Assembly: GCF_988243305.1 (NCBI RefSeq)
Contig: NZ_OZ547136.1
DNA length: 64,000 nt
Direction: 5' to 3' (one strand)
Shown: positions 15,919 to 29,828 of the stretch, in pieces
How the letters are laid out: each line of letters opens with the position of its first letter
Numbering within the stretch: the first letter of the stretch is position 1
Made by a program: the position numbers and the translations under genes
Notes under the pieces: model-generated
Seen by the model: the letters and a program-made list of their open reading frames with translations, nothing else
Told to the model about the DNA's origin: nothing
Databases searched by the model: none

Positions 15919-16329
15919 TGTCCTTCTCCTGCAAGAGAATTATTTTAATTTTCGCTTATTTCAGCGAAACCAAAGTAAAGTGGTCAAGCCCCGCGCATAG
16001 CGCAAGCTTAGGCAGAAGAAAGGACTAAAGCGCGTTGCGCCAGTGCTGCTCACCTACGAGCAAGATAGTGGATGAGGTACGAAGATGGGTAAATGTAGAA
16101 AATAACGTCCTGAACAAATTGTCCATAATATTACAATTATCCGCAGTGTTGCTTCTCGTCATCGCGGATGATAATTGTCCTCGGTAGTTGAACACGCCTG
16201 ATTTGTATCATAGCTTAAGAATTAACTCAAAATATTTTCACTTCTTTACCTGAGCAGTTTGATTTTCGTTATGATGACGGAGCGAAAAAGACATTATTAT
16301 TAGCAAAGGAAGAAAAAACGGGGACAAGC

Positions 16330-16466
16330 ATGGCAAAGCCGATCATCACGCTCAATGGCCTAAAAATCGTCATTATGTTGGGAATGCTGGTCATTATTCT
16401 CTGCGGTATCCGTTTTGCCGCCGAGATCATCGTGCCGTTTATTCTCGCATTATTTATTGCTGTTAT
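16330..16466 (+). pseudogene. tqsA: tqsA (AI-2 exporter) 5' fragment, codons 1-45, truncated by the insertion
   Basis: [45 protein letters not shown] then runs into island DNA (IYNLFHITR*). The rest of the gene resumes in frame at 31788. Confidence 0.95.
16458..16466 (+). repeat. attL core TGCTGTTAT
   Basis: Identical 9-mer at 31787-31795. Joining the flanks restores the tqsA reading frame (..FIAV|[10 protein letters not shown]..). Confidence 0.85.
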
Positions 16467-16540
16467 ATATAACTTATTTCACATAACACGTTGATTTAAT
16501 TAAATAATTTTCACCGCAAAAAGTGCCAAAAATCGCAAAA

Positions 16541-16606
16541 TGACTACACCAGTGACTACACCGTTCGGTGCACTGTATGAAACAACGTGGAACAAATAGA
16601 CACAAG
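16541..16606 (+). repeat. Left arm repeat: TGACTACACC x2 followed by 10-bp-phased AACAA units
   Basis: TGACTACACCAGTGACTACACC is identical to 31637-31658. The downstream AACAACGTGGAACAAATAGACACAAG resembles 31678-31705. Candidate integrase/excisionase arm sites. Confidence 0.7.
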
Positions 16607-16825
16607 AAATATACAGGCGGATCATCTTTCCAGGGGGAAGCGCACCAATTCATGAGGGGCGTTAATGTCGATATGGGGATCCCCACCTACCGGAATTTTT
16701 TTCCGGTTAAACGTTAATCAGGCTGGTGGGCTTTACCTGTTCGGTAGGTGTTATGATTATCGTAATACCTTTCCCCCAATGGGGTAAAAGCATCAACCGT
16801 AACGAAAGTCGTTATGGTTGCCACT

Positions 16826-16899
16826 GATACCCCAAATTTGGGTATCACGAGTAAGACCCAAAATCTGGGTGTTACTCTTACTACCCAAACTACGGGTAG
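16826..16899. repeat. Three tandem inverted-repeat units of the form ACCC-N5-7-GGGT, starting about 26-30 bp apart
   Basis: GATACCC-caaattt-GGGTATC (16826-16846), ACCCA-aaatc-TGGGT (16856-16870) and CTACCC-aaactac-GGGTAG (16881-16899). They lie in non-coding DNA. Confidence 0.6.
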
Positions 16900-16918
16900 T
16901 TTCCGTAGTTTCATGGTC

Positions 16919-16938
16919 GAGTTGCAGATCTGCAACTC
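16919..16938. repeat. Perfect 20-bp palindrome GAGTTGCAGATCTGCAACTC
   Basis: Read directly; the sequence is its own reverse complement. It lies 20 bp from the third inverted-repeat unit. Confidence 0.8.
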
Positions 16939-17231
16939 CCCCATTAACCACAGGCGAATTTCCGCCTTCGGTCATTCCTTAATCATCTGCGTAATCATAA
17001 TGATTATTCAGCAAGCGCAATTTTGCACTTTGCTTAAAGTTCAGCGAGTTACCGCGCCGACTTCCTCAAATTGAGGTTTCCGAAAATATCAGCGGGTTAG
17101 CGATTAAGCTGATCATTAATTAAACTGCGAAAATTTCGTAGTTTGTGACTGTCTTTCAGGCAGCTTGTTAACAGTCCTCAGAAGCGAGGGATGTAGCCAC
17201 CCATTTTTGGTCCGTCGGGAATATCAACCAG

Positions 17232-17513
17232 TTACCGCCGCAACCGCTCCGGCTTCTTCCAGTGGTACGTTATTTTCTCCTTCTCCCGATACATCTCCAC
17301 GCGGCGACGGTAGGCCAGCAACTCAAGAACTCTGGTTCGTATGTTGCGCATATCCACGCCATTAAGTTCTATACCATCACGGCGCATCACCTCAGCAACA
17401 ACACGCGCATAGTTTTCGGCTGTCACGCTGTCCGGCTGCGTGGCCTGTTCGTCAGCCTGCTGGCTGATTCCGGCAACGCGGCGGATTAATCCCGTTATTT
17501 CGGCTTCTGTCAT
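17232..17513 (-). CDS. Hypothetical protein (93 aa), last gene of the packaging operon
   Basis: ORF directly downstream of terL (13-nt gap). It is charged with a basic C-terminus, and I recognise no family. Confidence 0.55.
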   Translation of the reverse strand: MTEAEITGLIRRVAGISQQADEQATQPDSVTAENYARVVAEVMRRDGIELNGVDMRNIRTRVLELLAYRRRVEMYREKEKITYHWKKPERLRR

Positions 17514-17526
17514 GCTGCTGACCTCA

Positions 17527-19188
17527 TTACACCCCGCTAAATTCTTCCAGTTTCTGGCGGTGGCTGTCGCTTATATCAAAAGCAAAATCCTCATGCTCTG
17601 CCTGGAATGTACCAAACGCCATCAGCGCCGCCACGCTCGGGTCTATCTTGTTCGGTGATTTTTTCTTGTTCGGCTTGATATTGGCGTTCGCGTCACTCTG
17701 CATCACGACGTTACTCATCGACCAGGACAACACCGGATCGCCACGATGCACAATCACCCTGCGGTTAACAAAAACTTCGAACGATTTCGCCGCCGGACTG
17801 AATCTGAGGTAGGTTTGCGGGAACGGCTCCACCTCAAAACCTGCCCCCTGTAATTGCGTTCTGAGATGCGTGGCGTTCCACGTATCAAAGCCCACCAGCC
17901 TGATATTAAATTTCTCCGCGTCCTGCATGATGTCATCTCTGATCCGGTCGTAATCAATGCAGTCGCCAGGCGTTGTGCGTATCCAGCCTGCTTTAGCCCA
18001 CTGACGATAGATGGCGCGGTTTTTATTGGCGGGGTTCTGTAGCTGAAATTCCGGCAGATAGTGACGGGAAACCAGCATAATGGTTTTACCGACCGGAAAG
18101 GCATAGCACACGCTGGAAATATCGCTGGTTGATGATAAGTCCAGCCCCGCGTAACACTCCTGGCCGTGTAAATCTTCCTCCGTGAACGTTCCGGCACACT
18201 CAGCCCATGCGCCGTTACCCATCCACGGGGTAGCCCCCAGGCACCAGATATTAAATCGCTTTGTCATCATCTCCACCCACTGCGACGGAATACCCCGCGC
18301 TTTCTGGATGGTTGAGGCCAGTTTTTCACGATCCACGGAAACATCAATATTAGGGTTCGCCTTTATCCACATCGCCGGATCATCAACCTCGTTTTCGTCG
18401 TCCAGTTCGTAAATCAGTACAAAAATTGAATCGTTGACCTCTTCGCCGTCCAGGATCTGGCAGCAATAATCATAGTGCTGCTTACAGGCTGAAACGACGT
18501 TACTGCCTGATGTGGTAATAGCAAATAACAGCCCTTCGGGACGTGCGCCCATCCCCAGCTCAAGCGCGGAATAAACGCCGTTATCGGGGTGCAAGTGGTA
18601 TTCGTCCACGATGGAAAGGCTGGGGTTTGTTCCCTCGATGGTTGCCGCTTTTGCTGCCAGCGGCTTTAACAGGCTGTTGCTTTTCGGGTGTATCACCTTA
18701 TGCGCCTGAATATTCACCCGCCTGCGTAACGGTCGGGATAAAAGGCACATCTGACGCGCATCATCAAAGACGATCCGCGCCTGGTCACGGCTCACCGCTG
18801 CGGTGTAAATATCCTGCTGACCGTTCTCCATAATCAGAAACCAGTTAGCCAGAATCGCGGCGGTCGTGGATTTCGCATTTTTGCGCGGCACTTCGATAAA
18901 GGCGCTCGTGTATTTGCGCCGTCCGGTGGCCTTAACCTTAAAGCCGAGGATGCACGCAAAGGCGAACTGCTGCCACGGCTCCAGCTCAATGGGTCTGCCA
19001 CGCATCGGCCCTTTTACGTGCGGGCACACCCTGGAAAAGGCAATAAACCGCTCCACAACCTCACGATCGAACGTGTAAAGGGGGCTTTCAAGGTCCGAAA
19101 AGTACCGTTTAACGGCCTGTTTCAGCCGTTTACAGGCCGGAATTTTGCCCGTTTTTACGTCTTCTGCGTACTTATTCCAGGCGGTCAA
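17527..19188 (-). CDS. terL: Terminase large subunit
   Basis: 553-aa ORF with Walker-A-like region VPRKNAKST, DEYH Walker B and a C-terminal nuclease-like half. Its position after TerS is typical of Terminase_1-family TerL. Confidence 0.88.
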   Translation of the reverse strand: MTAWNKYAEDVKTGKIPACKRLKQAVKRYFSDLESPLYTFDREVVERFIAFSRVCPHVKGPMRGRPIELEPWQQFAFACILGFKVKATGRRKYTSAFIEVPRKNAKSTTAAILANWFLIMENGQQDIYTAAVSRDQARIVFDDARQMCLLSRPLRRRVNIQAHKVIHPKSNSLLKPLAAKAATIEGTNPSLSIVDEYHLHPDNGVYSALELGMGARPEGLLFAITTSGSNVVSACKQHYDYCCQILDGEEVNDSIFVLIYELDDENEVDDPAMWIKANPNIDVSVDREKLASTIQKARGIPSQWVEMMTKRFNIWCLGATPWMGNGAWAECAGTFTEEDLHGQECYAGLDLSSTSDISSVCYAFPVGKTIMLVSRHYLPEFQLQNPANKNRAIYRQWAKAGWIRTTPGDCIDYDRIRDDIMQDAEKFNIRLVGFDTWNATHLRTQLQGAGFEVEPFPQTYLRFSPAAKSFEVFVNRRVIVHRGDPVLSWSMSNVVMQSDANANIKPNKKKSPNKIDPSVAALMAFGTFQAEHEDFAFDISDSHRQKLEEFSGV

Positions 19189-19528
19189 GCTCGTCCTCTT
19201 CTTCTGTTTCCGGTGGATTTTTACGGCGGCTTATCGGGTCAAAACCGAGCAAGGAGGCCATTTTTATCATCACCCTTTCAGCGTCGGATTTTGCGCTTAA
19301 TGCGGGGTTTCTGCTCTCGCCGCCCTGACTGTTAACAATGCTGAACCCGCGCGCCGCAAGGTCTGCAACGGCTTTCCGGTAAATGGAGTAGTTGACACAA
19401 TACAGTTCCAGATTGCTCCAGTCGGCGGGGGTCAGGTCTCCCCGTTCCGCAAGCTGCCGCGATTTTTCCCGCCACTGCTTCACGGCGATGTCATCCAGGT
19501 AGGCGGGGGCTTTCGGTGGTCTTGCCAT
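19172..19528 (-). CDS. terS: Terminase small subunit, P27 family
   Basis: 118 aa. MARPPKAPAYLDDIAVKQWREKSRQLAERGDLTPADWSNLELYCVNYSIYRKA...GFDPISRRK matches the P27/Terminase_4 pattern. It overlaps terL by 17 nt. Confidence 0.85.
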   Translation of the reverse strand: MARPPKAPAYLDDIAVKQWREKSRQLAERGDLTPADWSNLELYCVNYSIYRKAVADLAARGFSIVNSQGGESRNPALSAKSDAERVMIKMASLLGFDPISRRKNPPETEEEDELDRLE

Positions 19529-19651
19529 ACTTATTTTTTCGCCAGATTATTTTTCAAAAAATTCCCGTGCATAAAAATTTGAGGAGGCGTTCGGTGCCCG
19601 GCGGGGTCGGGTTTGTCCTGAAAACGCCCCCCACCCCGTCATACAGCCTCA
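19529..19651 (-). other. Putative cos region (GC-rich segment with nested inverted repeats between the HNH-side genes and terS)
   Basis: Non-coding 123 bp containing GGCGTTCGGTGCCCGGCGGGGTCGGGTTTGTCCTGAAAACGCCCCCCACCCCG. The HNH / gap / TerS arrangement is that of HK97-like cos phages. The cleavage site itself cannot be read from the sequence. Confidence 0.35.
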
Positions 19652-19825
19652 TCAGCGATTGCGGAAACATTCCATAACCTCGCGGTCACGGTCGGTTAAT
19701 CGCTTCGCTGTGATGCGTTCTGCGCGTCCTGACGCTTTATCTTTATGCCCTGTTTCCTGTGTCTTCCATGCGTCACGCTGCCTTATAAGTCCACGGATAA
19801 GGCGGTTTTGTTCCCGCTCATTCAT
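19652..19825 (-). CDS. Small basic hypothetical protein (57 aa), start overlapping the HNH stop
   Basis: The ATG lies inside GCTGATGAATGA, overlapping the HNH stop (coupled arrangement). Product MNEREQNRLIRGLIRQRDAWKTQETGHKDKASGRAERITAKRLTDRDREVMECFRNR is Arg/Lys-rich. It is the 3' third of the 134-aa track ORF, whose remainder overlaps HNH. Confidence 0.4.
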   Translation of the reverse strand: MNEREQNRLIRGLIRQRDAWKTQETGHKDKASGRAERITAKRLTDRDREVMECFRNR

Positions 19826-20258
19826 CAGCGTCATACATCCAGTTATTGCGGTTAGCGGACCGTTCTTCCTCTTCACGAAATCCACCTGCGGCACGCTTGC
19901 TTTTTGTTGCCGGATCAAGCCATTTCGTTTTCTGGTTATGACACGCCTGACACAATGGCTGATGGTTCCATTCGGGCCAGAAGAGAACATCATCGCCGCC
20001 ATCGATGGGGATAATGTGATCCACCACCACGGCGGGCGTATATATCCCCTTCTCAAGGCATCGCACGCATAACGGGTTTTTACTCAGATACATGGCGCGG
20101 TATTTGTCCCACTGTCTGGAGTACCCACGCGCGCGGCGGTGTCCTCGTCTGGCATCCTCTGCACGCCATGCCGCCCGCCTGTGCTCCTCACACTTACCGG
20201 ACTTAACGCGCCTGTTACAGCCTGGTTCTGTACATCGTCTTAATGGTTGCCACGGCAT
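19818..20258 (-). CDS. HNH endonuclease (terminase-associated)
   Basis: 146 aa with CxxC...VDHIIP...N...LCxxCH HNH/zinc motifs (CVRC, DHIIPIDGG, CQACHNQKT), adjacent to the terminase genes. Confidence 0.88.
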   Translation of the reverse strand: MPWQPLRRCTEPGCNRRVKSGKCEEHRRAAWRAEDARRGHRRARGYSRQWDKYRAMYLSKNPLCVRCLEKGIYTPAVVVDHIIPIDGGDDVLFWPEWNHQPLCQACHNQKTKWLDPATKSKRAAGGFREEEERSANRNNWMYDADE

Positions 20259-20554
20259 CAGTACACCCCCACATCACGGTAAGCCGTCCAGAGTGCGCCT
20301 ATCGTCATGGGTACGCGCGTTTTTGCGTTATCCGCGACAATCTGGCGATTTTCATACAGGTGAGCGATAAACATCATGCAGCCAATCTTTATGGCTGGCG
20401 TGAACTCCAGCCCGTCATCAAAGCGCCTGCCTATGTGTATCTGGCACGCCTCAAGCGATGCGGCAATGTATCCGCTGATTAACTGGTCTTCATCGTCGCC
20501 ATCGATGCGGCAATGGAGTTTCACTTCTTCCAGGGTGATAAGTTCTTCTGTCAT
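20258..20554 (-). CDS. gp6-like head-tail connector protein
   Basis: 98 aa. MTEELITLEEVKLHCRIDGDDEDQLISGYIAASLEAC... is the typical Phage_connect_1 N-terminus. The stop overlaps the HNH start (TGATG). Confidence 0.8.
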   Translation of the reverse strand: MTEELITLEEVKLHCRIDGDDEDQLISGYIAASLEACQIHIGRRFDDGLEFTPAIKIGCMMFIAHLYENRQIVADNAKTRVPMTIGALWTAYRDVGVY

Positions 20555-20889
20555 TTTTCCGCGCCCTCACGACAAAGAATTTCAAGGCGTGTCCTGGCGG
20601 CATCCGGCAACGGTTGCCCGATGATATTCAGTACACGCCCCGCCAGCGGCCCTGTATTGACCTTTATCCGACTGGTGGCGTTGATGTCCTTCCGGTAGCG
20701 TATCCATATCCTTACCGTTCCAGTCGCCAGCTCTGCACCTGATGAAATGGCCTCCTTGCTGCTGATCATGTTCACGCTTGCCCAGAGTGTGTGACCGTCC
20801 ACCCACGTTTCGAGTATTTCGCCGGTTATATCCCTGGTCTGTTTCAGGGTCTGAATCGTTACCCTGTCACGCAGTCGCCCTATGTTCAT
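20551..20889 (-). CDS. Head-tail joining (head closure/adaptor, gp7-like) protein
   Basis: MNIGRLRDRVTIQTLKQTRDITGEILETWVDGHTLWASV...VRIWIRYRKDI matches the Phage_H_T_join pattern. ATGA overlaps occur at both ends. Confidence 0.8.
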   Translation of the reverse strand: MNIGRLRDRVTIQTLKQTRDITGEILETWVDGHTLWASVNMISSKEAISSGAELATGTVRIWIRYRKDINATSRIKVNTGPLAGRVLNIIGQPLPDAARTRLEILCREGAEK

Positions 20890-22097
20890 TCCGGTTTTTC
20901 TCCCTCGCTGATTTTTACTTCCTGTTTCCATGCCTGGCTGAACTCATCACCACCATCACGCGGGGACAGCCCTTCACGTTCGCGGGCTTCGTTCGGGCAC
21001 ATAACGCCGGATTTGATGCCGCGTTCATAGGTGGCAAAGCGTTCGCCAGGTGTGGCCCGTAACAGGTCCGCGCTGTCAAACTCCACCTGATACCGGATAC
21101 CAGGTACAGGCGAGGCCACCAGCAGGGCGTTTTTTATCTGCTGCTCAAAGTTCGCCAGCCACGGGCGCATCGTCATGGTGAGAAATGCGCGGCTTGCCTC
21201 GCTGAAGTTGCTGTAGGTGCTGTTGCTGTATTCCTGCAAAAAAATCGGCGAGACGTTGAACATTCGGGCGATGTCTTCAATGGTGAAGCGACGGGAGGCC
21301 AGCCATTCGGCATCCTGATTACTCATGCCCAGCTGCTGATAGCTCATCCCCCCTTCAAGGATGGGCGTTTTTCCGGCGTTTCTGGCCCCTTTGTAGCGTT
21401 CCAGTGCGGCTAATGCCTGTTTGCCCTTCACGCCGTCCAGCCATTCGCCTGACGTGATAACCCCTGCCGCCATCATGCCATCACGCATCACGCTCGCGCC
21501 GTGGCGTTGTTGGGCCAGCCCAAGCCCCAGCGATTCGCGGCAGATGGTTACAGGTGAGCGCCCCATAAAACCGTCATCCGTGGAGTAACGAAGGTGGAGA
21601 ACCTCCCACGGTAAATAGTTGCGGGTGTTTCCGGTGTAGGCGTCAGTGATGCAGTAGCGCCAGTTATGATCACCTGTCTGCTCCACGTTCACCGACTGCG
21701 GCGGGTAAGGATGTAAAGCCACCGGAAAACCATCACGCCCCCACTGAATCACCGCATAAGCATTACCGTTTAACAGGCAGTGGCGGATCATCATTCGCTT
21801 AAACTGGTAGGGAGTCTGCCACGCGTTCGGGCGCTCGTTGAGGATGTGATCGACCGGATGAGAATCAAGCCACTCGCGGGCCTCCTTCCCCTTCTCATTG
21901 CGTACCAGGTACAGGTAACACGGCATGGTAGCCACCGCCTCAGAGATGACCGTCACGGCGTTCATGACGGCGGGCAGTGATTCCGCTGTCCCCGATGATA
22001 CGTACTCACCCGCCCCCGTGTTCGATGTGCCAGCCAGCGCCATAAACTCATCAAGCGTCATGCTGCGCTGCTCTTTTTTTCTTCTGAAAGGCCACAT
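20886..22097 (-). CDS. Portal protein, HK97 family
   Basis: 403 aa with typical HK97-type portal features (..ESLPAVMNAVTVISEAVATMP.., C-terminal acidic tail). It lies next to the protease. Confidence 0.88.
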   Translation of the reverse strand: MWPFRRKKEQRSMTLDEFMALAGTSNTGAGEYVSSGTAESLPAVMNAVTVISEAVATMPCYLYLVRNEKGKEAREWLDSHPVDHILNERPNAWQTPYQFKRMMIRHCLLNGNAYAVIQWGRDGFPVALHPYPPQSVNVEQTGDHNWRYCITDAYTGNTRNYLPWEVLHLRYSTDDGFMGRSPVTICRESLGLGLAQQRHGASVMRDGMMAAGVITSGEWLDGVKGKQALAALERYKGARNAGKTPILEGGMSYQQLGMSNQDAEWLASRRFTIEDIARMFNVSPIFLQEYSNSTYSNFSEASRAFLTMTMRPWLANFEQQIKNALLVASPVPGIRYQVEFDSADLLRATPGERFATYERGIKSGVMCPNEAREREGLSPRDGGDEFSQAWKQEVKISEGEKPE

Positions 22098-22098
22098 A

Positions 22099-22671
22099 TC
22101 ACACCCCCGCTAAATCCACCCACCAGCGGCGATTATCCGCACGCGGCATTTTTTCGGGGTGCTGCTCATACAGGGAACGGCGGGCCAGCTCCACGCCGGA
22201 ATCGGGGTAAGCCGGTACCGATGTAACGGTAATTTCGTACAGTTCCGCCACCAGCACGGTGCGCACGCATGGATCTGTTGTGGTATCCCATACATCCTTA
22301 CGGGAGCGAAAGCCAAAGCTCATCCCCGAGATGTCCCCACGCTTAACCAGTTCGATAACGTCGCGCCCTGTACTGGTATCCGGTGGGGTCAGTTCAAAGC
22401 GTAACCCTGTTTCGTCCTCTTCCAGTTTCAGCGTGCCGGAACGGGTGCGCCCCAGTAACATGCTGTGGTCATGCTCATACAGGCCGCGAACGTCATTACC
22501 CGCCGCAAGCCACTCAGTAAACGCCCCCCGCTGGAATTTTTCGTAAAACTCCCCCCATAGCAGTTCTGAAAGCTTATCCCAGCGAACAACGTAGCCCGTC
22601 AGCGTACCGGCTCCGCTGGTAGTGATTTCCGATGACCGGATTTCCATACTCTTCATAATTTTTTCACCCAT
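22099..22671 (-). CDS. Prohead maturation protease, HK97 (S78) family
   Basis: 190 aa. ..GYVVRWDKLSE...RGLYEHDHSMLLGRT...GDISGMSFGF.. is the pattern of HK97 gp4-like proteases. It sits between the MCP and portal genes. Confidence 0.85.
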   Translation of the reverse strand: MGEKIMKSMEIRSSEITTSGAGTLTGYVVRWDKLSELLWGEFYEKFQRGAFTEWLAAGNDVRGLYEHDHSMLLGRTRSGTLKLEEDETGLRFELTPPDTSTGRDVIELVKRGDISGMSFGFRSRKDVWDTTTDPCVRTVLVAELYEITVTSVPAYPDSGVELARRSLYEQHPEKMPRADNRRWWVDLAGV

Positions 22672-22710
22672 AAAACACTAAAGGGGCTTTTAAGCCCCTT
22701 CTGTATGCTG

Positions 22711-23868
22711 TTAATCGTCGTCCTGTGGCAGTTCCAGAATCTTGATCGCGTTCGAATCCACCACGCCACCGCCTAAATATTTCTGCGTGAAAATTTTGAT
22801 GAAGCCCGGCTCTGTGAGGTTGTCCGGTCTGGTGCGAACACCTGTTTCGTGATCAACAATGTAGTAACCGCGTTTGAAGTCACCCAGGGCAATAACGTTA
22901 TCCGGCATAAACTCCAGATATTCGACCGGAAGGCCCAGTAACGTATCAGGATCACCCGCCTGTAAACGGTCGCGCCAGATGTAATCACCGTTCGCGTTCT
23001 TCACCTTCTGAAGTTTTGCCGCCGTCGTGGAGTTAACCACCCAGACCGCGTTTTTGCGGTATTTTTTACGTAATGCAAATTTCAGGTCGATCAGCGGGTC
23101 CGCAGATGTCCACGCCAGAGATTCGGAAGGTTTAATTACCTGCAACGTACCAAAATCACGCTCTTTGTCGTTCTTCTCTGCACGGGGTACGGATAAAAAA
23201 CCTTTTGCTTTTTTGTCACCGTCGCCCACAACCAGATCGCTTTCTTCGGTTTCCGTGAAGGTGTCGCCAATCTCGCCCGTCAGCCATGAAAGGATGTCCA
23301 CATCGGAAAAATCCACGATTTCCTGTGTGGTGCGCGGGTACGCATAGACCGGATACAGCTTAATGCTCACCTCGTTAATCTGCGGGGTGCTGGTCTGTTC
23401 GCGTGTCTTACCCTCTTCACCGTGGTTAACGGTCGCACCGCCAGCGGAAACAAGCTGCTTAAACTCGTTGCTGCTGATTTTCTTCACGGTACAGATGCGG
23501 CGCATGGTGGACTCATCCGCCAGCATTCGCATGATTTCGGTGTTCAGTTCGGGGATAACGGTATAACCACCATCAGCGGGAACGCCTGTACTTAATGCGC
23601 GGGTTTCACCTGTCAGAATGTAGTTGCGTAGTTCTGCGGGGTCAGTGGTCTGGCTGCTTTTACCTGGCTTGCTGCGCTCTTCGTCTGCAATGGCTTCAAG
23701 GCGGGAAATGTCTTTATCGAGGGATTCAGCTTTAGCGCGTAATTCGTCAAATTTTGCGCCCTCAGCATCGTTAAGACTGCGGTTTTCTTTTTCCGCGTTC
23801 TCCAGCATGTCGCGCATCTGATTTTTAATGGCGGTTTTCTGCTGGCGTAATTCGATTATTCTCGGCAT
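22711..23868 (-). CDS. Major capsid protein, HK97 fold, with N-terminal coiled-coil delta/scaffold domain
   Basis: ATG at 23868 (MPRIIELRQQKTAIKNQMRDMLENAEKE...) is preferred over the TTG at 23913. The product is 385 aa with a coiled-coil N-terminus followed by a typical HK97-family body. Confidence 0.88.
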   Translation of the reverse strand: MPRIIELRQQKTAIKNQMRDMLENAEKENRSLNDAEGAKFDELRAKAESLDKDISRLEAIADEERSKPGKSSQTTDPAELRNYILTGETRALSTGVPADGGYTVIPELNTEIMRMLADESTMRRICTVKKISSNEFKQLVSAGGATVNHGEEGKTREQTSTPQINEVSIKLYPVYAYPRTTQEIVDFSDVDILSWLTGEIGDTFTETEESDLVVGDGDKKAKGFLSVPRAEKNDKERDFGTLQVIKPSESLAWTSADPLIDLKFALRKKYRKNAVWVVNSTTAAKLQKVKNANGDYIWRDRLQAGDPDTLLGLPVEYLEFMPDNVIALGDFKRGYYIVDHETGVRTRPDNLTEPGFIKIFTQKYLGGGVVDSNAIKILELPQDDD

Positions 23869-24083
23869 AAAAAAAAGTCCTGGGGTTAAGTAAGGAACTC
23901 CAGGACGCGGCAAACACTCAACCGTTTTTCATAAGGAAATCAGCAATCGCACCGATCGTTTTCCCGCCTGGTAATGAATATTGGCGAGCACATTAACAGG
24001 CGGGAAAGTGGCCCCAGCGTCCTGGCACCACGGGCGAGAATAATCATGATTCAGTTCGGGTAAAATATGCCGATCCGCTCAGT

Positions 24084-24110
24084 GAACAACGTGGAACAAC
24101 CACGAACAAA
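24084..24110 (+). promoter_or_regulatory. Three 10-bp-phased GAACAA units upstream of the capsid operon
   Basis: GAACAAcgtgGAACAAccacGAACAAataa lies 216 bp upstream of the MCP ATG, between the terminator at 24121-24150 and the operon. A 23-nt stretch matches 30289-30311 (inverted) with 2 mismatches. Confidence 0.55.
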
Positions 24111-24120
24111 TAATTTACAA

Positions 24121-24150
24121 AAAATAACAAAAAGCCGGATTGCTCCGGCT
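24121..24150 (-). terminator. Rho-independent terminator (minus strand)
   Basis: On the minus strand, AGCCGGAgcaaTCCGGCT is followed by TTTTTGTTATTTTTT. It lies 20 nt after the stop of the 74-aa gene. Confidence 0.8.
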
Positions 24151-24169
24151 GTATGTGCTGTATGGGTGC

Positions 24170-24394
24170 TCAGTCTCTGATCCCTTTCAGAAATTCTATC
24201 AATGCATCTGTCTGTTCAGGATTTACTGCCAGCATTTCACCGGATAGCGCGCAACGAACAAAACCATGATGATCCTTTTCAATCAGTGCGCCCGTCTCCA
24301 GGAATGCGCGGTAATCATTGATGCTCATCGTCTCCATGTTGTCAGCATGGTATTTATCACGCTGTTTTAATATCTCATCAAATTTCATCGGCAT
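24170..24394 (-). CDS. Hypothetical protein (74 aa), moron-like unit bracketed by twin terminators
   Basis: ATG at 24394 is preceded by AGAGGAAAAAACA. Product is MPMKFDEILKQRDKYHADNMETMSINDYRAFLETGALIEKDHHGFVRCALSGEMLAVNPEQTDALIEFLKGIRD. I recognise no family. Confidence 0.6.
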   Translation of the reverse strand: MPMKFDEILKQRDKYHADNMETMSINDYRAFLETGALIEKDHHGFVRCALSGEMLAVNPEQTDALIEFLKGIRD

Positions 24395-24488
24395 TGTTTT
24401 TTCCTCTGTTGTGTCTGTTTGTTTCAGATAGTAACTATGCCTGACCGTGACGAAAACCCGGTAATGCGCCATACCGTTTCAACTGGTG

Positions 24489-24513
24489 CAAAAAAAGCCG
24501 GATTTCTCCGGCT
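24489..24513 (-). terminator. Rho-independent terminator (minus strand), near-duplicate of 24121-24150
   Basis: On the minus strand, AGCCGGAgaaaTCCGGCT is followed by TTTTTTTG, downstream of the PerC-like gene. Confidence 0.8.
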
Positions 24514-24563
24514 GTGTGATTAGCTGTCCTGGTAATTGCGCCATATTTCATCACCAGCACCAT

Positions 24564-24791
24564 CTATCCCCATTTCGGCATAAGTGCGATCGACTGCCTT
24601 TTCAGGTCTCCGTAATTATCCGGTGGCTCCGGTGGCCTCTGTGCCTTCCTGGAACATTCCAGCCGTCGCATCGTGATGTGATGCCGTTCCTTGTCTGTCT
24701 CCACCAGCAGCATGACTTCACCCCATCGCGCCGACGCCCTCCGGTAAAATCCTTTAGCCTCGAGTTCCTCCGCTATGCGGTCATGTACCAT
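24564..24791 (-). CDS. PerC-family (PerC/Pch-like) transcriptional regulator
   Basis: ATG at 24791 is preceded by GGGGGTGAGG, right after the ssb stop. The 75-aa product MVHDRIAEELEAKGFYRRASARWGEVMLLVETDKERHHITMRRLEC... resembles the PerC N-terminal signature (..AE.LE.KG.WRRAA.RW..). Confidence 0.65.
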   Translation of the reverse strand: MVHDRIAEELEAKGFYRRASARWGEVMLLVETDKERHHITMRRLECSRKAQRPPEPPDNYGDLKRQSIALMPKWG

Positions 24792-24801
24792 CCTCACCCC
24801 C

Positions 24802-25212
24802 TCAGAACGGAATACCGTCACCGTAAGGGTCATCGCCTCCCGCTGGTGGCTGATTACCCTGTGTGCCTGTGGTTTTGCGTCTGTTCCCGCCAGGACGTGC
24901 CGCACGGGCACTGATTACGCTGTCTGCAATAACCTGCCAGCCCTGCCGCGTTTCTCCGTTCTGTCCGGTCCACTGGCTTACCTGCATCGTGCCGGATACG
25001 CTGGCAACATCGCCTTTTTGATGTTTAGCCAGGAAGTCGGCCTGTTTGCCAAATGCGATGACCGATAACCATAACGTCGCCTGTCCGTCCTGTGCCTGGC
25101 TGCATGGCAAAGATACCGCCATACGCGCCAGCGTCATCGGTGTGCCCTTGCTGGTCTGTTTTACCTGCGGGTCGTCCACCAGCCGCCCGTAAGCGGCTAT
25201 CTGTGCCGTCAT
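24802..25212 (-). CDS. ssb: Single-stranded DNA-binding protein
   Basis: 136 aa with an OB-fold-like N-terminus, a Gly/Pro/Gln-rich linker and a C-terminal acidic tip ..GGDDPYGDGIPF, the canonical SSB tail. Confidence 0.85.
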   Translation of the reverse strand: MTAQIAAYGRLVDDPQVKQTSKGTPMTLARMAVSLPCSQAQDGQATLWLSVIAFGKQADFLAKHQKGDVASVSGTMQVSQWTGQNGETRQGWQVIADSVISARAARPGGNRRKTTGTQGNQPPAGGDDPYGDGIPF

Positions 25213-25460
25213 AATTCCACCTCTCCGGTTTTAACGTTGATGGTTGTTACCTGTTCCGCTTCGGCAATCTCCCGTTCTGTCAGCGTGGCAAAGTTTGCCG
25301 CCGCCGTGGTCATGAATGCGCTTATCAGGTCGGGATGTTCCTTCGCGTATCCTTCCCGCGTGTGGCGGTCTATCGTTCTGATTGCCACCTTTAAAGCGTG
25401 CTCAGTCATGTCTAACGCTTTATATTTTGGCTCTGTTCTGTCTCTGCGTTTTTGGGTCAT
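25209..25460 (-). CDS. Hypothetical protein (83 aa)
   Basis: ATG at 25460 (MTQKRRDRTEPKYK...) with GAGAGG upstream is preferred over 25490, which would overlap the iterons. ATGA overlap with ssb. Confidence 0.55.
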   Translation of the reverse strand: MTQKRRDRTEPKYKALDMTEHALKVAIRTIDRHTREGYAKEHPDLISAFMTTAAANFATLTEREIAEAEQVTTINVKTGEVEL

Positions 25461-25472
25461 TTCTCGCAACCT

Positions 25473-25662
25473 CTCACTTTTTCGCCTCACTTTTTCAAGC
25501 GTCTCACTTCGTCGCAGTTGGGATTTTCGGTTTTTCTATGTGTGTGTTTCATAAGTATTTTTTTACCCCTCACTTTTGAGGATGTATACAGGTCGAAAAG
25601 TGAGGGAGAGCGGGCTAATTTTGGCCCTCTTTCTATCCCCCTCGCTTTTGCTCCTCACTTTT
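25473..25662. repeat. Iteron array (CCTCACTTTT x7, one inverted) with AT-rich core: putative origin of replication
   Basis: Copies lie at 25473, 25485, 25502, 25568, 25596 (inverted), 25640 (1 mismatch) and 25653. They flank a T-rich stretch at 25520-25565, directly downstream of the helicase gene. Confidence 0.6.
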
Positions 25663-27061
25663 ATAGCGGCGCTACATCATCCCCATCGATACGAATAACC
25701 CCATCTTTTTCCAGCTTGTACAGCCAGCGCCGGAAGTTTTTCATTTCATACCCCAGTTTTTTCATGTCATCACGTAACAGCGGGATCGTGCACTTGTCGC
25801 CGTTCTGTGTGCGTGAACGGATGCACCCCCATAGCGCGGTATGGTTTTCCGTCTTGTTCCCTGCCTCCTCGATGCGCTCCAGTTCAACAGGAGGGCGCGG
25901 ATCATCCACCACTACCAGCGACGTGATTAATTCACCGTCAGCGTCGGTAAAAAGCTCCACCACGCGTAAGTCATATGCGGCTTCTTTGAGTTCCTCCGCG
26001 TCCTTCATTTTGGTGCATGAGATAACCAGCGCTTCGCTTCCTGCGTCCTCCCTGCGTATCCGGTATTCAGCATCCAGCGAAGCACGAAATGCACTGGAAC
26101 CGCGCGCGCCTTTCGTCTCATCCTTGCCGGAATGGTGAACCACCAGCACCGTGGCCCCTGTGCGTCGTTTCAGTTCGTCACAACCACGGATAAACGCCCC
26201 CATATCACGGGAATCATTTTCATCATTCCCACCAAAGCAACGCGCCAGCGTATCCAGAATAATCATGCGTACAGGTTTACCCGTTTCCCGCTCCACCTGA
26301 CGGGCAGCGATAACCATTTCATCAACATCAAGCGGGGCAGCCGGAAAGATGGGGCGGTTTACCAGATACAGATTTTTCACCTGCTCATCGTGCACAACCT
26401 CCCAGGCTTTTACACGACGCGGAACACCTATACCGCCTTCACCAACCACATAGAGAACCGCACCATGTGCAACCCTGCGGCCTCCCCACTGGCGACCAGT
26501 GGCAACATGGCACGCCCACGATCCGGCAAGGAATGATTTATAGGACCCGCTAGCCCCGTATATGCTGCATAGCGATACCGCCGGAATAATCCCCTTAACC
26601 ACGTAATCCAGTTGCGTGTCGTATCCGGTAGATCCAACGCTCATCGGTAGCGTGGTTTTTCGCTGGTGGTTTTTTTCTTCCACCGGCTCTTTCCCGCGCA
26701 CCCGTTCCAGGTATTCGCGCCAGTTCTCCCGCATATGGCTGTGCATCCCTTCGGGGTAATAATTCGCATCAGTTACACCCGCCGCCGCCAGCTTGTGCGC
26801 AATGGCATTAATATTTGATGGCCTGATGTGGCCTGCCTTGTACAGCCGGACACAATAGCGCCCCTCGTCGATGATTCTCAGGTCTGCCAGTTCATCCAGT
26901 TGATCATCAGCCAGCACAACGGGAGGCACATTATCGCCAGCCAGTCGCCCGTCCTGTTCCTGCCACTGTTTCGCATGTGCCCAGGCATCACTACCCGCAA
27001 AAATAATGACTTCGGTCATCTTGTCGTAAGGCTGTTTTTTTAAGTTCGGTGCGCTTTTCAT
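25661..27061 (-). CDS. Replication protein: RepA/AAA_25 (RecA-like) helicase-type ATPase with extra N- and C-terminal domains
   Basis: 466 aa. Features are P-loop-like GASGSYKS, Walker B MIILDT, LVVHHSGKD and ARGSSAF motifs typical of RepA-like helicases. The C-terminal part looks like a winged-helix domain. Confidence 0.75.
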   Translation of the reverse strand: MKSAPNLKKQPYDKMTEVIIFAGSDAWAHAKQWQEQDGRLAGDNVPPVVLADDQLDELADLRIIDEGRYCVRLYKAGHIRPSNINAIAHKLAAAGVTDANYYPEGMHSHMRENWREYLERVRGKEPVEEKNHQRKTTLPMSVGSTGYDTQLDYVVKGIIPAVSLCSIYGASGSYKSFLAGSWACHVATGRQWGGRRVAHGAVLYVVGEGGIGVPRRVKAWEVVHDEQVKNLYLVNRPIFPAAPLDVDEMVIAARQVERETGKPVRMIILDTLARCFGGNDENDSRDMGAFIRGCDELKRRTGATVLVVHHSGKDETKGARGSSAFRASLDAEYRIRREDAGSEALVISCTKMKDAEELKEAAYDLRVVELFTDADGELITSLVVVDDPRPPVELERIEEAGNKTENHTALWGCIRSRTQNGDKCTIPLLRDDMKKLGYEMKNFRRWLYKLEKDGVIRIDGDDVAPL

Positions 27062-27357
27062 TTCTTGCCCCTGAATCCGTTAATCATGGTTTTCAGCTTC
27101 TGGATGTTTGCCCGTGCCCTGGCGTTGCTGGTGGGCACGTTATGCGGCGCGGTCTGTACCAGAGAAAAATCACGCCGGAACTGATAAACAGGCATCACGC
27201 AATCATATTCGTAACCTTCACGGCGGTAGGTTACGCGCCGTTCTTCCACGCCCTTAATCATTACCGTGCCGCCGTACTGGTCGCGGTAAATATCACCGCG
27301 CGTAAATTTAGGGTGAGTGTTGCCACTGGCAGTTAAGCCAGAATATTTAAGTTTCAT
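27058..27357 (-). CDS. Hypothetical protein (99 aa; possibly DUF4222-like)
   Basis: ATGA overlap with the helicase start. GDIYRDQYGGTVMIKGVEERRVTYRREGYEYDCVMPVYQFRRDF resembles a small prophage family, recalled only loosely. Confidence 0.55.
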   Translation of the reverse strand: MKLKYSGLTASGNTHPKFTRGDIYRDQYGGTVMIKGVEERRVTYRREGYEYDCVMPVYQFRRDFSLVQTAPHNVPTSNARARANIQKLKTMINGFRGKK

Positions 27358-27362
27358 TATTT

Positions 27363-27596
27363 TTATTCTCCGGTGTGCTGTTCTTTATATCTGTCGTGCA
27401 ATAGATCTATTTCTTGCAGTTCCATTATTACAGGCTCAAGAAGCGTTATTAATGCCGTGGCAATTCTTGATTTTTGTTTGTCGCGTTCATTGTCGCCAAG
27501 TGTTTCAAGCCATATGCGCAATATTTCCAGCATGTTTTCACTGTGAGAAAGTGCAAGAAATACGCGGTCTATTGTTTCGTGGTAAATATCACGCAT
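27363..27596 (-). CDS. Hypothetical protein (77 aa)
   Basis: Tightly packed minus-strand ORF (MRDIYHETIDRVFLALSH...) whose start lies 2 nt after the upstream stop. Confidence 0.5.
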   Translation of the reverse strand: MRDIYHETIDRVFLALSHSENMLEILRIWLETLGDNERDKQKSRIATALITLLEPVIMELQEIDLLHDRYKEQHTGE

Positions 27597-27597
27597 A

Positions 27598-27819
27598 TTA
27601 ATCCCCGTCCGTCGTTTTTCTTAAAATAACCTCTGTCACGAAATCAGCATAATCGGCGGCGATATTCAGTACATCAAGCCCCGTTGATTTATATTCTCTC
27701 GTGGAAAGTAAGAAAAAAGCCGCTCTAATAAGTTCTGGCATTGACGAAAGCGCATCAGCCGCATCATCAGGAACGCCGGAAAATTCCTGTTTCAGGGAAT
27801 TAAAACGATCATCACGCAT
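27598..27819 (-). CDS. Hypothetical protein (73 aa)
   Basis: ATG at 27819 lies 2 nt downstream of a G9 run (minus strand). Acidic helical protein, MRDDRFNSLKQEFSGVPDD... Confidence 0.5.
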   Translation of the reverse strand: MRDDRFNSLKQEFSGVPDDAADALSSMPELIRAAFFLLSTREYKSTGLDVLNIAADYADFVTEVILRKTTDGD

Positions 27820-28034
27820 AACCCCCCCCCATTTTCACAATCAGCAACAAGAATATTTTTAGCGTCATTCAGCGACCGCGTTGCGATGTATCGGATACAT
27901 TCCAGGGCGAACTGTGTCCGGTCTTTCTGTTCTTCTCCCTGCGCAAGCTCTGCAGTGCATTCAATATCGATAAGCGCGTGCATCAGCGTAGTGAGCGCGG
28001 CGGCTGCTGCGTCCGGTGTGGTTTTATTGCACAT
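27792..28034 (-). CDS. Hypothetical protein (80 aa)
   Basis: ATG at 28034 is preceded by AGGAGG (MCNKTTPDAAAAALTTLMHALIDIECTAELAQGEEQ...). It overlaps the icd-like 3' end by 11 nt. Confidence 0.55.
   Translation of the reverse strand: MCNKTTPDAAAAALTTLMHALIDIECTAELAQGEEQKDRTQFALECIRYIATRSLNDAKNILVADCENGGGLCVMIVLIP
27822..27830. repeat. Homopolymeric C9 (plus) / G9 (minus) tract
   Basis: Read directly: a CCCCCCCCC a. It lies in the 3' end of the 80-aa ORF and in the RBS position of the 73-aa ORF. Confidence 0.95.
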
Positions 28035-28224: not shown

Positions 28225-28312
28225 AACGGCTCCTAGTTTACGTTGTTGGTTAGACGCCCCGTATGTGTTCCCAGCACTGCGGGGCGTTGATTTTTGTGTA
28301 ATGGCAAGTACA

Positions 28313-28528: not shown

Positions 28529-28549
28529 ATTTCAGAAGGAGATAAAATA

Positions 28550-29771: not shown

Positions 29772-29828
29772 GGTTATAGCTCTGTGTTCAGATGATTGAT
29801 GTGTGGCGGCTGCGTGCCGCCAGCGTGA

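Follow-up and report, generated by a model that had tools for sequence, protein, structure and literature searches.

In P4 (NC_001609), the core has on each side a pair of adjoining 12-nt repeats, annotated as "attP arm sequence repeats" after Pierson & Kahn 1987 and located at 3942-3965 and 4151-4174. All four are co-oriented, and the int start codon (3926) is 16 nt from the nearer pair. The int-side pair is followed by GGACAA, GGAAGA, and GGACGA at 10-bp spacing, and two extra single repeats, one of them inverted, are also present. The core spans 20 bp within a tRNA-Leu gene, and the RDF of P4, Vis, is a Phage_AlpA protein. The int promoter is repressed by P4 Int as well as by Vis, and P4 also has an IHF site (PMC7286903). 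A comparable arrangement was described in 2023 for helper-embedded PICIs (HE-PICIs), which are Gram-negative PICIs with int and alpA: the doubled motif tgTGTATTGCantgTGTATTGCa, a tandem 8-mer with the core TGTATTGC in a 12-bp register, occurs twice in attP in one orientation, with a spacing of 213 bp and at fixed, unequal distances of 81 and 132 bp from the crossover. The authors proposed these as four sites for the Int arm domains and stated that they did not find the motif in other PICIs, fis PICIs among them (PMC10111431). The sites of the IntS/TorI system of KplE1 (CPS-53) have been determined experimentally. There, an att arm and the int promoter region next to it overlap, and Int arm-type sites, whose motif contains TAAA, are interleaved with RDF sites. 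The latter read GTTCG (the reverse complement of CGAAC) and are grouped in two blocks, one with three sites separated by 2 nt; Int and RDF both repress int, and the RDF gene, which is transcribed separately, serves as the excision switch (PMC2951348).

Lambda attP combines a heterobivalent integrase with arm-type sites on both arms and IHF-like sites between the arms and the core. Its five arm sites are used differently in each direction, and Xis sites are found on one arm only. RDF sites are typically direct repeats spaced by one helical turn, and dual-function RDFs such as Apl of phage 186 and Cox of P2 are also active at promoters, Apl for instance working at att and at promoters (PMC7498355).

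The excision switch of PICIs is known genetically, as int and alpA. In the literature searched, we found no report of mapped protein-binding sites for the integrase clade considered here, and searches with the motif string and with PDB code 8C3T gave no relevant match. Here we describe composite repeats of ~65-76 bp at both ends of an island in a 64-kb stretch of DNA (64,000 nucleotides, hereafter the window). Comparison with relatives indicates that they are probably the two attP arms of a P4-style recombination module carrying sites for Int and AlpA.

Results

The island and its integration site

Judged by its gene content, the island at 16467-31786 in E. coli tqsA is a capsid-forming PICI (a cf-PICI-type phage satellite). 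It measures 15,329 bp from core to core, and Pfam calls comprise int (Arm-DNA-bind_3 and Phage_integrase), alpA, a RepA-type helicase, and SSB, followed on the packaging side by capsid, protease, portal, head completion, connector, HNH, TerS, and TerL; no tail genes were among its Pfam matches. This set of int, alpA, replication, capsid, and packaging genes in ~15 kb, without tail or lysis genes, fits the cf-PICI definition of 10.1101/2022.09.08.507074. For EcCIEDL933, helper-phage induction and tail piracy have been reported in the literature. At least 80% of the query region 16300-32000 is present in 59 E. coli genomes. In a search for structured RNA, an Rfam scan of the same region gave no family at the gathering score. 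Iteron-like repeats at 25478-25662 lie directly 3' of repA, the place where PICI origins have been reported (PMC6092414).

The 9-bp core proposed in the first-pass annotation was found at both ends of the island, with the following surrounding features.

16458-16466, + strand: left 9-bp att identity block TGCTGTTAT, supported by the empty K-12 site, the aligned attPs, and the attP of relative L023
16458-16464, + strand: predicted 7-bp overlap, TGCTGTT
16465-16472, + strand: putative C' core-type half-site ATATATAA
16484-16496, - strand: exact IHF consensus (WATCAANNNNTTR) match, AATCAACGTGTTA, in the interval that separates the core from the far-side doubled motif
31724-31736, + strand: IHF-like block AATCAAAAACATA, one mismatch to the consensus
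31779-31786, + strand: putative C core-type half-site TGATAAAA, adjoined by the right TGCTGTTAT copy
31787-31795, + strand: right 9-bp identity block TGCTGTTAT

At the empty tqsA site of E. coli genomes, including K-12, the flanks are joined via a single copy of TGCTGTTAT. Aligned attPs read T[GT]ATAAAA-N7-[AT]TTTAT[AC]A, which is the arrangement of a core, with inverted half-sites around a short overlap that attP and attB have in common. The half-sites form a perfect TGATAAAA/TTTTATCA pair in the phoQ-site type, and C' of the window is ATATATAA. The IHF consensus is matched seven times in the window, where 2.75 matches would be expected. In the aligned attPs, the far-side candidate keeps its TTGA(T/A) block, and the int-side block is an exact consensus match in the Yersinia and Serratia relatives; across relatives, strict conservation of the IHF-like blocks is limited to ATCA/TTGA.

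Paired repeats at the island ends

The 22-mer TGACTACACCAGTGACTACACC, said earlier to be repeated identically just inside both island ends, occurs exactly at 16541-16562 and 31637-31658, both on the + strand. Each copy holds two 10-mers, listed here with the integrase gene.

16541-16550 and 16553-16562, + strand: far-side doubled motif, TGACTACACC twice in a 12-bp register, predicted Int arm-type pair
31637-31646 and 31649-31658, + strand: int-side doubled motif, TGACTACACC twice in a 12-bp register, predicted Int arm-type pair
30382-31611, - strand: int, tyrosine integrase of 409 aa with an N-terminal Arm-DNA-bind_3 domain (residues 8-95)

All four exact copies of TGACTACACC in the window are at these two loci. 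With at most one mismatch, eight matches were found against 2.33 expected, a number reached in none of 100 shuffles. A repeat finder extended the similarity to 76 nt with 76% identity (16537-16612 versus 31633-31708). The motif is thus of the kind that marks arm sites: repeated, distinct from the core, inside the element, and on both sides of the core. The int-side doubled motif begins 25 nt upstream of the int start codon.

The copies had been expected to flank attP almost symmetrically. This holds for the nearest block edges, which are 74 nt from the core on the left and 81 nt on the right (from the block end at 31705). The doubled 10-mers themselves are placed asymmetrically: since the two copies repeat in the same direction, the int-side pair is ~143 bp and the far-side pair ~90 bp from the centre of the crossover.

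Relatives were drawn from E. coli complete genomes, exact-protein look-ups, and IMG/VR. The 23 with an int-side arm that was read represent six genera and include E. coli (six att sites), Shigella, Salmonella, Yersinia, Serratia, Cronobacter, and IMG/VR contigs; their Int proteins are 53-100% identical to that of the window. In all 23, a doubled 8-10-mer in a 12-bp register is located 16-60 nt upstream of int. The far arm, wherever its sequence was at hand, carries the same doubled motif in the same orientation. When the ends of related islands were aligned, as the first-pass annotation had suggested, the repeats were present in the homologous islands, with no absences among the arms read. The part of the 10-mer that is conserved in these islands is the 8-mer ACTACACC.

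In reconstructed attPs from seven att-site classes, the distance between the pair centres is 232-234 bp, and 355-bp reconstructions align nearly without gaps. Genuine attP junctions in IMG/VR contigs gave separations of 233, 232, and 234 bp. One of these contigs, L023, is circular and metagenomic and encodes an Int 100% identical to that of the window; it matches the predicted attP junction at 289 of 299 bases, and its core and int-side arm are identical to those of the window. L021, a second tqsA island, is divergent between the IHF-like site and the motif, with the 8-mer cores, the spacer, and the array unchanged. The proposal that both ends of the element are intact is supported by the almost gapless alignment of the window attP with those of relatives, including the EcCICFT073 type, and by its agreement with the L023 attP; both ends accordingly appear complete.

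Phased arrays and AlpA

ACAA units at exact 10-bp spacing trail both 22-mers, as first observed; they lie at 16582/16592/16602 and 31668/31678/31688/31698. Three further arrays (R2, B, and C), not noted in the first-pass annotation, are present in the island.

16580-16606, + strand: far-side phased array (AACAA 16581-16585, AACAA 16591-16595, CACAA 16601-16605), predicted AlpA (RDF) sites
31667-31702, + strand: int-side array R1 (ACAA at 31668, 31678, 31688, 31698), predicted AlpA sites
31739-31773, + strand: int-side array R2, adjoining the core (GCACAG, GAAACA, GAAACA, AAAACA at 10-bp spacing)
24085-24130, + strand: array B, five units (24085, 24095, 24105, 24116, 24126), predicted AlpA-dependent capsid/packaging control region
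30290-30333, - strand: array C, five units in the orientation opposite to the other arrays, predicted AlpA autoregulatory sites
30052-30077, - strand: pair of ACAA units in phase, read as TTGT at 30060 and 30070 of the + strand, ~50 nt ahead of the alpA start codon
29829-30017, - strand: alpA, 62 aa, Pfam Phage_AlpA, candidate binder of the phased arrays

Arrays of at least three ACAA units at 10-bp spacing occur at four places in the island and in none of 200 shuffles. The phased arrays of the island are confined to the arms, the region upstream of alpA, and the region upstream of the capsid operon. On the - strand, the intrinsic terminator at 24133-24150 directly precedes array B, and the capsid gene (22711-23913) lies downstream of the array, which is also found in relative L001. 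Array C sits between the int stop codon and alpA, and relatives have five or six units with variable spacers there; GAAC pairs or arrays upstream of alpA, comparable to the pair at 30052-30077, were also seen in L008, L013, L015, L016, and L017, and distant relatives likewise have phased units there. A strict pattern, [AG]AAC[ACG]A with at least three units, missed most arrays since the units are degenerate, and a scan for ACAA chains and column information content were used instead. In 14 relatives, information content peaks on AAC every 10 columns. The 10-bp phasing noted earlier is thus conserved, but what is kept within each unit is (G/A)AAC and not ACAA.

AlpA of the window matches Phage_AlpA (E = 5.4e-17) and PDB entry 8c3t (E = 2e-6) and is 45% identical to P4 Vis. 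AlpA has been reported to activate its own promoter (PMC6092414). The arrays within the att arms consist of at least three direct repeats one helical turn apart. This is the layout typical of RDF sites (PMC7498355), and similar units recur upstream of alpA; both points favour the suggestion that an accessory or excision factor binds the phased units. Since such units are also found beside the core and in front of both alpA and the capsid operon, the likely binder is AlpA. The relative L003, whose Int and AlpA accessions are those of EcCICFT073, has these arms and arrays.

Phased A-rich tracts with a 10-bp period curve DNA, and the units are A-rich with just this period. They might be sequence-directed bends that curve the arms or, alternatively, initiator iterons like the type-1 repeats of P4 ori/crr (GGTGAACAG), which in ori contain GAACA at ~10-bp spacing and in crr lie close to attP. 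We regard this explanation as unlikely. A-A-C is the most conserved part of the unit, and its C is nearly invariant over six genera, which points to base-specific recognition and not to A-tract curvature alone. The arrays are also unchanged in islands with different initiators, namely, the RepA helicase in the window, a primase family in L001 and L003, and DUF927 in L006. Replication iterons were rejected on account of this constancy and of the separate iteron-like repeats 3' of repA.

Arrays B and C are both upstream of - strand genes and yet have opposite orientations, and this counts against the model.

In EcCICFT073, AlpA was reported to have no effect on an int promoter fusion (PMC6092414), a result that fits poorly with AlpA arrays between the core and int. 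Scans of the int-alpA and capsid-upstream regions for sigma-70 promoters gave counts at or below shuffle expectation; we have therefore placed no int or late promoter.

Specificity of the paired repeats

The arm-binding domain of Int (Pfam Arm-DNA-bind_3, formerly DUF4102) gave E = 1.4e-18, consistent with a heterobivalent integrase, and the N-domain matched that of a CP4-like integrase (PDB 3jtz) with E = 1.5e-5. An AlphaFold model of this domain has strands at residues 25-28, 33-37, 43-49, and 60-67 and a helix at 72-87. The doubled motifs of the relatives fall into three classes, ACTACAC, ACC[AT]CACA, and ACTGCAC, and each class is uniform over all four sites, including the far arms located 10-15 kb from int. 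The ACC class was found with two AlpA lineages, both of which also occur with the ACT class, and the ACC-class Int proteins are one another's closest relatives. Class-specific Int residues are S34 to E/Q/L and T48 to K/R, and K39R accompanies ACTGCAC. Position 2 of the motif corresponds to Int residue 36 (K36 with G, R36 with A) in 21 of 23 int-side pairs, a correlation that could partly be linkage because the int-side motif is 25 nt from the N-domain codons. Residues 34, 36, and 48 are within strands 33-37 and 43-49 of the model. As judged from these comparisons, the variants of the doubled motif track the Int lineage and β-strand residues of its N-domain, not the AlpA lineage.

A strict co-variation of TGAC/TAAC with the N-domain on both arms was rejected; the far arms mix the two forms whatever the N-domain type. 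The changes of motif class amount to only two or three independent events.

That the 10-mers are arm-type sites for the Int N-domain, as had been proposed, is supported by their conservation in both arms, the fixed 232-234 bp separation, and the co-variation with Int lineage, and we therefore refer to the doubled motifs as predicted Int arm-type sites. The authors of the HE-PICI study left open whether a protein other than Int binds their analogous motif (PMC10111431), and AlpA or another DNA-binding protein of the island could similarly occupy the doubled motif here. Such a binder seems quite improbable: motif class goes with the Int lineage and not with that of AlpA, for which a separate conserved phased motif is already available, and islands sharing the motif differ in their other regulators (Rha-like, AntA/AntB, DUF6387, and ORF6N) and also in their replication proteins. 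Moreover, the doubled motif was not found upstream of alpA, the known site of action of AlpA (PMC6092414).

It is hardly credible, and already largely refuted, that the copies stem from an old duplication and have no function, that they match by chance, or that they belong to a coding ORF. Two copies with 76% identity over 76 nt are what a duplication would give, and a 60-aa hypothetical protein in RefSeq spans the int-side arm in L021, with an arm-overlapping ORF in some genomes. However, an exact 22-mer twice in 64 kb is unexpected by chance, motif and spacing are kept down to 53% Int identity while the flanks diverge, the period of conservation is 10 bp and not 3 bp, with a 1-nt indel among relatives, and Rfam has no match in the region.

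Comparison with known attP systems

The predicted arm-type pairs of the window (31637-31658 and 16541-16562; int start 31611) resemble those of P4 in several respects. All four paired repeats are co-oriented in both; the int-side pair is close to the int start codon (16 nt in P4 and 25 nt in the window) and is followed by phased units; and the far-side pair is nearer to the core (75 versus 134 bp in P4 and ~90 versus ~143 bp in the window). The P4 integrase has an N-terminal arm-binding domain of the same family as Int of the window. By contrast, the arm motifs are unrelated (ATGCCCCC in P4 and ACTACACC in the window), which places the island outside the P4 specificity group, and the two integrases are only 24% identical. 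Given the 45% identity of Vis and AlpA, this fits a similar phased unit beside an unrelated arm motif. The two systems also differ in pair-to-pair distance (209 bp in P4 and 233 bp in the window), in the extra single repeats of P4 (in the window, no extra copies of its own motif were found), in the far-side pair, which in P4 has no phased array after it in the stretch read, and in the core, which in the window is a 9-bp block inside a protein-coding gene.

The HE-PICI motif shares with that of the window its tandem 8-mer, 12-bp register, co-orientation, and unequal distances from the crossover, but the sequence and spacing are different (TGTATTGC and 213 bp versus ACTACACC and 233 bp), and the window does not carry the HE-PICI motif. 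A Serratia fis PICI (L017) and the classical PICIs and cf-PICIs of E. coli carry a doubled motif of their own.

The interleaved Int and RDF sites of KplE1 have a counterpart in the window, where they are predicted from sequence and the arm-type motif differs. Pfam did not support TorI as a member of the AlpA family, the sequence queried giving no Phage_AlpA score; the likeness between GTTCG and GAAC is a resemblance that may be coincidental. The window shares with lambda the heterobivalent integrase, the predicted arm-type sites on both arms, and candidate IHF-like sites between the arms and the core. It differs in the number of arm sites, which is exactly four and made up of two identical pairs, and in carrying a phased array on each arm.

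Discussion

What is established here is the sequences with their conservation and geometry, the way they vary together with Int, and that the excised attP exists. On this basis, the module would work as follows. The N-terminal domain of Int would bind the paired sites of each arm, in a 12-bp register and with the core ACTACACC, so that the four arm sites could serve the four protomers of the recombining tetramer; in attP, the pairs are separated by a fixed 233 bp, of which ~143 bp fall to the int side of the crossover and ~90 bp to the far side. AlpA, a Vis-like winged-helix protein, would bind the direct (G/A)AAC(A)A units cooperatively on both arms and, on the int side, next to the core, and by bending the arms it may permit excision once a helper phage turns alpA on. 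At the units upstream of alpA and of the capsid operon, AlpA would activate its own gene and the late genes. Int at the int-side pair probably represses int because this pair is 25 nt from the int start codon; repression by Int of its own gene has been reported in P4 (PMC7286903) and KplE1 (PMC2951348).

No new principle of recombination is revealed by this layout, which is already known from P4. What the analysis offers for the clade to which the EcCICFT073-type model elements belong is a set of site predictions: four 8-mers for Int, GAAC units for AlpA, and a fixed span of 233 bp. It also extends the doubled-motif concept of helper-embedded PICIs to classical, fis-site, and capsid-forming PICIs and ties it to the P4 layout. 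Residues 34, 36, 39, and 48 are candidate specificity residues of Int, and if the residues are co-adapted, an S34E/T48K Int would be expected to fit ACCACACA at all four sites.

As widespread gene-transfer vehicles among Enterobacterales, PICIs and cf-PICIs are also being engineered for delivery. We put forward, as a tentative proposal about which we are more doubtful than confident, that AlpA reads one (G/A)AAC code at five places (the three att-arm arrays, the alpA promoter, and the capsid-operon control region) and, separately, that a rigid intasome with four arm sites and a 233-bp span is common to a whole clade of enterobacterial PICI integrases. In the first case, a single helper-induced protein would trigger excision, self-amplification, and late genes together. 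The integrases of the clade appear to retarget mainly by a swap of the 7-bp overlap while the arms stay constant, and if so, the clade would be a naturally reprogrammable integrase scaffold.

Structure of the island and its terminal repeats

The element is bounded by a 9-bp block, TGCTGTTAT, with copies at 16458-16466 and 31787-31795, and in empty-site genomes, including K-12, the flanks are joined via a single copy of this block inside tqsA. Every gene of the island is encoded on the − strand.

Genes of the island
30382-31611, −, int (Arm-DNA-bind_3 and Phage_integrase domains)
29829-30017, −, alpA
−, genes for a Rha-like protein, a RepA-type helicase, and SSB
−, capsid/packaging genes (capsid, prohead protease, portal, head completion, connector, HNH, TerS, and TerL)

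The island is a capsid-forming PICI with the architecture described for EcCIEDL933 (10.1101/2022.09.08.507074); no tail genes were found among its genes. Of complete E. coli genomes, 59 contain 80% or more of the query region (16300-32000). The island interrupts tqsA (AI-2 transporter) after approximately codon 46 (16330-16466 and 31787-32693) without restoring the gene, and an in-frame TAA lies just 5′ of the right junction. In the genome carrying L021, a second tqsA island, the tqsA remnant is a RefSeq pseudogene without the N-terminus, and island carriers are probably tqsA-null. The sequence TTTT[TAG]C[GCT]CCTCACTTTT is present three times, at intervals of 83 to 85 bp, in 25478-25662, immediately 3′ of the repA-type helicase gene; iteron-bearing PICI replication origins have been reported 3′ of a repA-type gene (PMC6092414). 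Strong enrichment of Chi (GCTGGTGG) marks the island, whose 15.3 kb hold 12 of the 18 copies in the window (span 16722-30727). One pair, 16722(+)/17892(−), faces inward within an 18-nt perfect inverted repeat. Between 17.9 and 30.7 kb, the − strand carries 8 of the 11 copies. Such an arrangement would shield a linear packaged genome, with ends near 16.7 to 17.9 kb, from RecBCD.

The composite repeats that the first-pass annotation had noticed just inside both island ends are genuine and far from chance. The 22-mer TGACTACACCAGTGACTACACC has two exact + strand copies, at 16541-16562 (far side) and 31637-31658 (int side), and ACAA units follow 3′ of each copy at a spacing of exactly 10 bp (16582, 16592, and 16602; 31668, 31678, 31688, and 31698). 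The 10-mer of this doubled motif is matched exactly four times across the 64 kb, never outside these two places; when up to one mismatch was allowed, eight matches were found against 2.33 expected, a count reached by no shuffle. Only four places in the island have ACAA chains of three or more units, and none of 200 shuffles produced one. The similarity of the two copies, as delimited by a repeat finder, spans 76 nt with 76% identity. The repeats had been expected to flank attP, the site of the excised circle, almost symmetrically. This holds for the core-proximal edges of the composite blocks, where the distance to the core is 74 nt on the left and, measured from the block end at 31705, 81 nt on the right. 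It does not hold for the doubled 10-mers: since the copies are direct repeats, the int-side pair is approximately 143 bp and the far-side pair approximately 90 bp from the crossover center.

Conservation of the att arms among related islands

Int relatives were present in 1,240 of 5,426 E. coli genomes, and E. coli islands were read at six sites.

Islands read, by integration site or host
tqsA: window, L021
phoQ/roxA: L001-L003, Shigella locus L004, L019 (EcCICFT073)
yifB: L005
smrA/abgR: L006, L010
clpS/cspD: L007, L008
thiM/rcnR: L009
Salmonella: L011, L012, L015, L016
Yersinia: L013, L014
Cronobacter: L018
Serratia, fis-site PICI: L017
IMG/VR contigs

Alignment of the related island ends recovered the doubled motif in every int-side arm read, as two tandem copies of an 8-10-mer with a 12-bp register, 16 to 60 nt 5′ of the int start codon; the far arm, wherever available, also carries this doubled motif, in the same orientation. 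Between the two tqsA islands, the stretch from the IHF-like site to the far-side pair has diverged strongly, with the 8-mer cores, spacer, and array unchanged. In L021, a 60-aa + strand hypothetical protein in RefSeq (17718-17900, corresponding to approximately 31599-31781 in the window) spans exactly the int-side arm, motif plus arrays; this ORF is likely an annotation artifact, because conservation has a period of 10 bp and an indel occurs among the relatives.

The center-to-center separation of the pairs is 232 to 234 bp in the reconstructed attPs of all seven site classes (the six E. coli sites and the Serratia fis site), despite unrelated cores and Int identity down to 55%, and the 355-bp attPs of relatives align nearly gap-free. 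Real junctions gave the same values. The IMG/VR contig L023 (11,098 bp), which is circular since its ends overlap, encodes an Int 100% identical to that of the window, and its attP agrees with the predicted junction at 289 of 299 compared bases: the int-side arm and core (...GATAAAATGCTGTTATATATAAC...) are identical to the prediction, and the 10 differences are all in the far arm. Its pairs lie 233 bp apart, and those of two further IMG/VR contigs 232 and 234 bp. This circular attP supports the earlier proposal that both ends of the element are intact.

In the aligned attPs, inverted core-type half-sites, T[GT]ATAAAA and [AT]TTTAT[AC]A, surround a variable 7-bp overlap. Both arms contain an ATCAA/TTGAT block, the far-side one being an exact IHF consensus at 16484-16496, and an A-tract 5′ of the far-side pair is conserved. 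The overlap changes most (TGCTGTT, TATGTCC, ATCCGCT, AACTATC, TACGGGT, and TCACGAT) among the junctions compared, namely, window 16458-16472 and 31779-31795 and those of L001, L005, L008, L009, L010, and L017. Closely related integrases use at least seven chromosomal sites, with the arms and inverted half-sites retained. The window Int shares 90 to 91% identity with the phoQ-site Ints; approximately half of the differences fall in residues 1-90, and the catalytic domain is nearly unchanged.

E. coli CREC-629 (L007) carries a tandem array of PICI copies at 6 places in the record. At L007 7686-7790, a hybrid junction between neighboring copies leads from the int-side pair, through a crossover within a ACGAACAA unit, into the far-side array, without the core and approximately 230 bp of attP; recombination between the direct composite repeats thus seems possible.

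The doubled motif as a candidate Int arm-type site

Three motif classes were distinguished: ACTACAC in most islands, ACC[AT]CACA in the E. coli and Salmonella islands at thiM/rcnR, and ACTGCAC in three relatives (L097, L100, and L101). All four sites of an element share one class, including those in far arms 10 to 15 kb from int, and linkage to the int 5′ end is therefore no explanation. The ACC class pairs with two different AlpA lineages: the AlpA of L009 (ACC) is 83% identical to that of L008 (ACT), and the AlpA of L015 (ACC) is nearest to that of L016 (ACT). By contrast, the Ints of L009 and L015 are mutual nearest relatives. Class-separating residues are confined to the Int N-terminal domain, with S34 replaced by E, Q, or L and T48 by K or R in the ACC class and K39R in the ACTGCAC class. 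Of 23 int-side pairs, 21 have G at motif position 2 with K36 or A with R36; the pairing of R36 with A was seen both in an E. coli clade and in a distant Salmonella island. Residues 34, 36, and 48 map to strands 33-37 and 43-49 of the sheet in an AlphaFold model; this β-sheet reads DNA in arm-binding domains of this type, as in λ and Tn916 Int.

Because the motif class co-varies with the Int lineage and its N-domain residues and not with AlpA, a co-variation that rests on only two or three independent changes, the doubled 8-mers are quite probably arm-type sites of the Int N-domain. Conservation, geometry, and precedent likewise favor this assignment, which the first-pass annotation had put forward for the 10-mers.

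The phased units as candidate AlpA sites

The attP contains three phased arrays, one 3′ of each pair and a third (31739-31773) reaching the core on the int side, and information content across 14 relatives peaks at A-A-C every 10 columns. Further units lie inside the island.

Phased units outside attP
24085-24130, array B, five units directly after an intrinsic terminator, 5′ of the capsid gene
30052-30077, two units approximately 50 nt 5′ of alpA
30290-30333, array C, five inverted units between int and alpA

Array C has five to six units with varying spacers in relatives, and GAAC pairs or arrays occur 5′ of alpA in distant relatives. It is unlikely that the units are replication iterons, because the arrays are constant across islands with different initiator types and separate iteron-like repeats sit immediately 3′ of repA.

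AlpA is the most likely binder, an assignment somewhat less secure than that of the doubled motif to Int, in view of the arrays in the arms and upstream of alpA and the capsid gene, the reported roles of AlpA, and precedents for recombination directionality factor (RDF) sites. The AlpA of EcCICFT073 activates its own promoter and is needed for induction, and its overexpression leads to excision and replication (PMC6092414); L003, with the same Int and AlpA accessions, has the arm and array layout of the window. PICMI AlpA is sufficient alone for excision and has been proposed as a component of the excision complex (PMC10803314). According to PMC7498355, RDF sites are direct repeats one helical turn apart, and Apl of phage 186 works at att as well as at promoters. 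Against AlpA, an EcCICFT073 int promoter fusion was unresponsive to it (PMC6092414). The conservation, the arrays 5′ of alpA, and the RDF precedent support the original suggestion of putative accessory or excision-factor sites.

Read along the − strand, 24085-24150 comprises an intrinsic terminator (24133-24150) and, directly after it, five phased TTGTT units, with the capsid gene next, an order that suggests that the capsid/packaging operon is a late unit under its own control. Array B and a portion of array C are 92% complementary. Halfway from int to alpA, on the downstream side of array C, a hairpin is followed by T residues (GGCATGAAACAATATTTTATGCC TTTG, − strand, 30130-30200); it was not called by the terminator scan and could be the int transcript end or an attenuator before alpA.

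Comparison with known systems

The GenBank record of P4 lists its "attP arm sequence repeats" as adjacent 12-mers, two to either side of the core and all on one strand. A gap of 16 nt separates the int-side pair (3942-3965) from int, and GGACAA/GGAAGA/GGACGA come after the pair, spaced 10 bp apart; this pair and the far-side pair (4151-4174) lie 134 and 75 bp, respectively, from the core center. The island AlpA shows 45% identity to P4 Vis, whereas the two Ints share 24%, which fits a similar phased unit and an unrelated arm motif (ATGCCCCC in P4 versus ACTACACC). In P4, int is repressed by both Int and Vis (PMC7286903). The TorI sites of KplE1 are GTTCG-type pentamers (reverse complement of CGAAC) in two blocks of the int-proximal arm (PMC2951348).

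A 2023 study of helper-embedded PICIs reported a doubled motif, TGTATTGC, with a 12-bp register and at distances of 81 and 132 bp from the attP center, proposed Int arm domains or AlpA as its binders, and stated that other PICIs, fis PICIs among them, lack it (PMC10111431). Our comparison, drawn from sequence, shows that classical, fis-site, and capsid-forming PICIs possess a doubled motif of their own, built to the same plan, for which no report was found in the literature searched. The arrangement is thus of a known type and brings no new mechanism; its value lies in exact, testable predictions of sites and residues for a widely studied satellite family.
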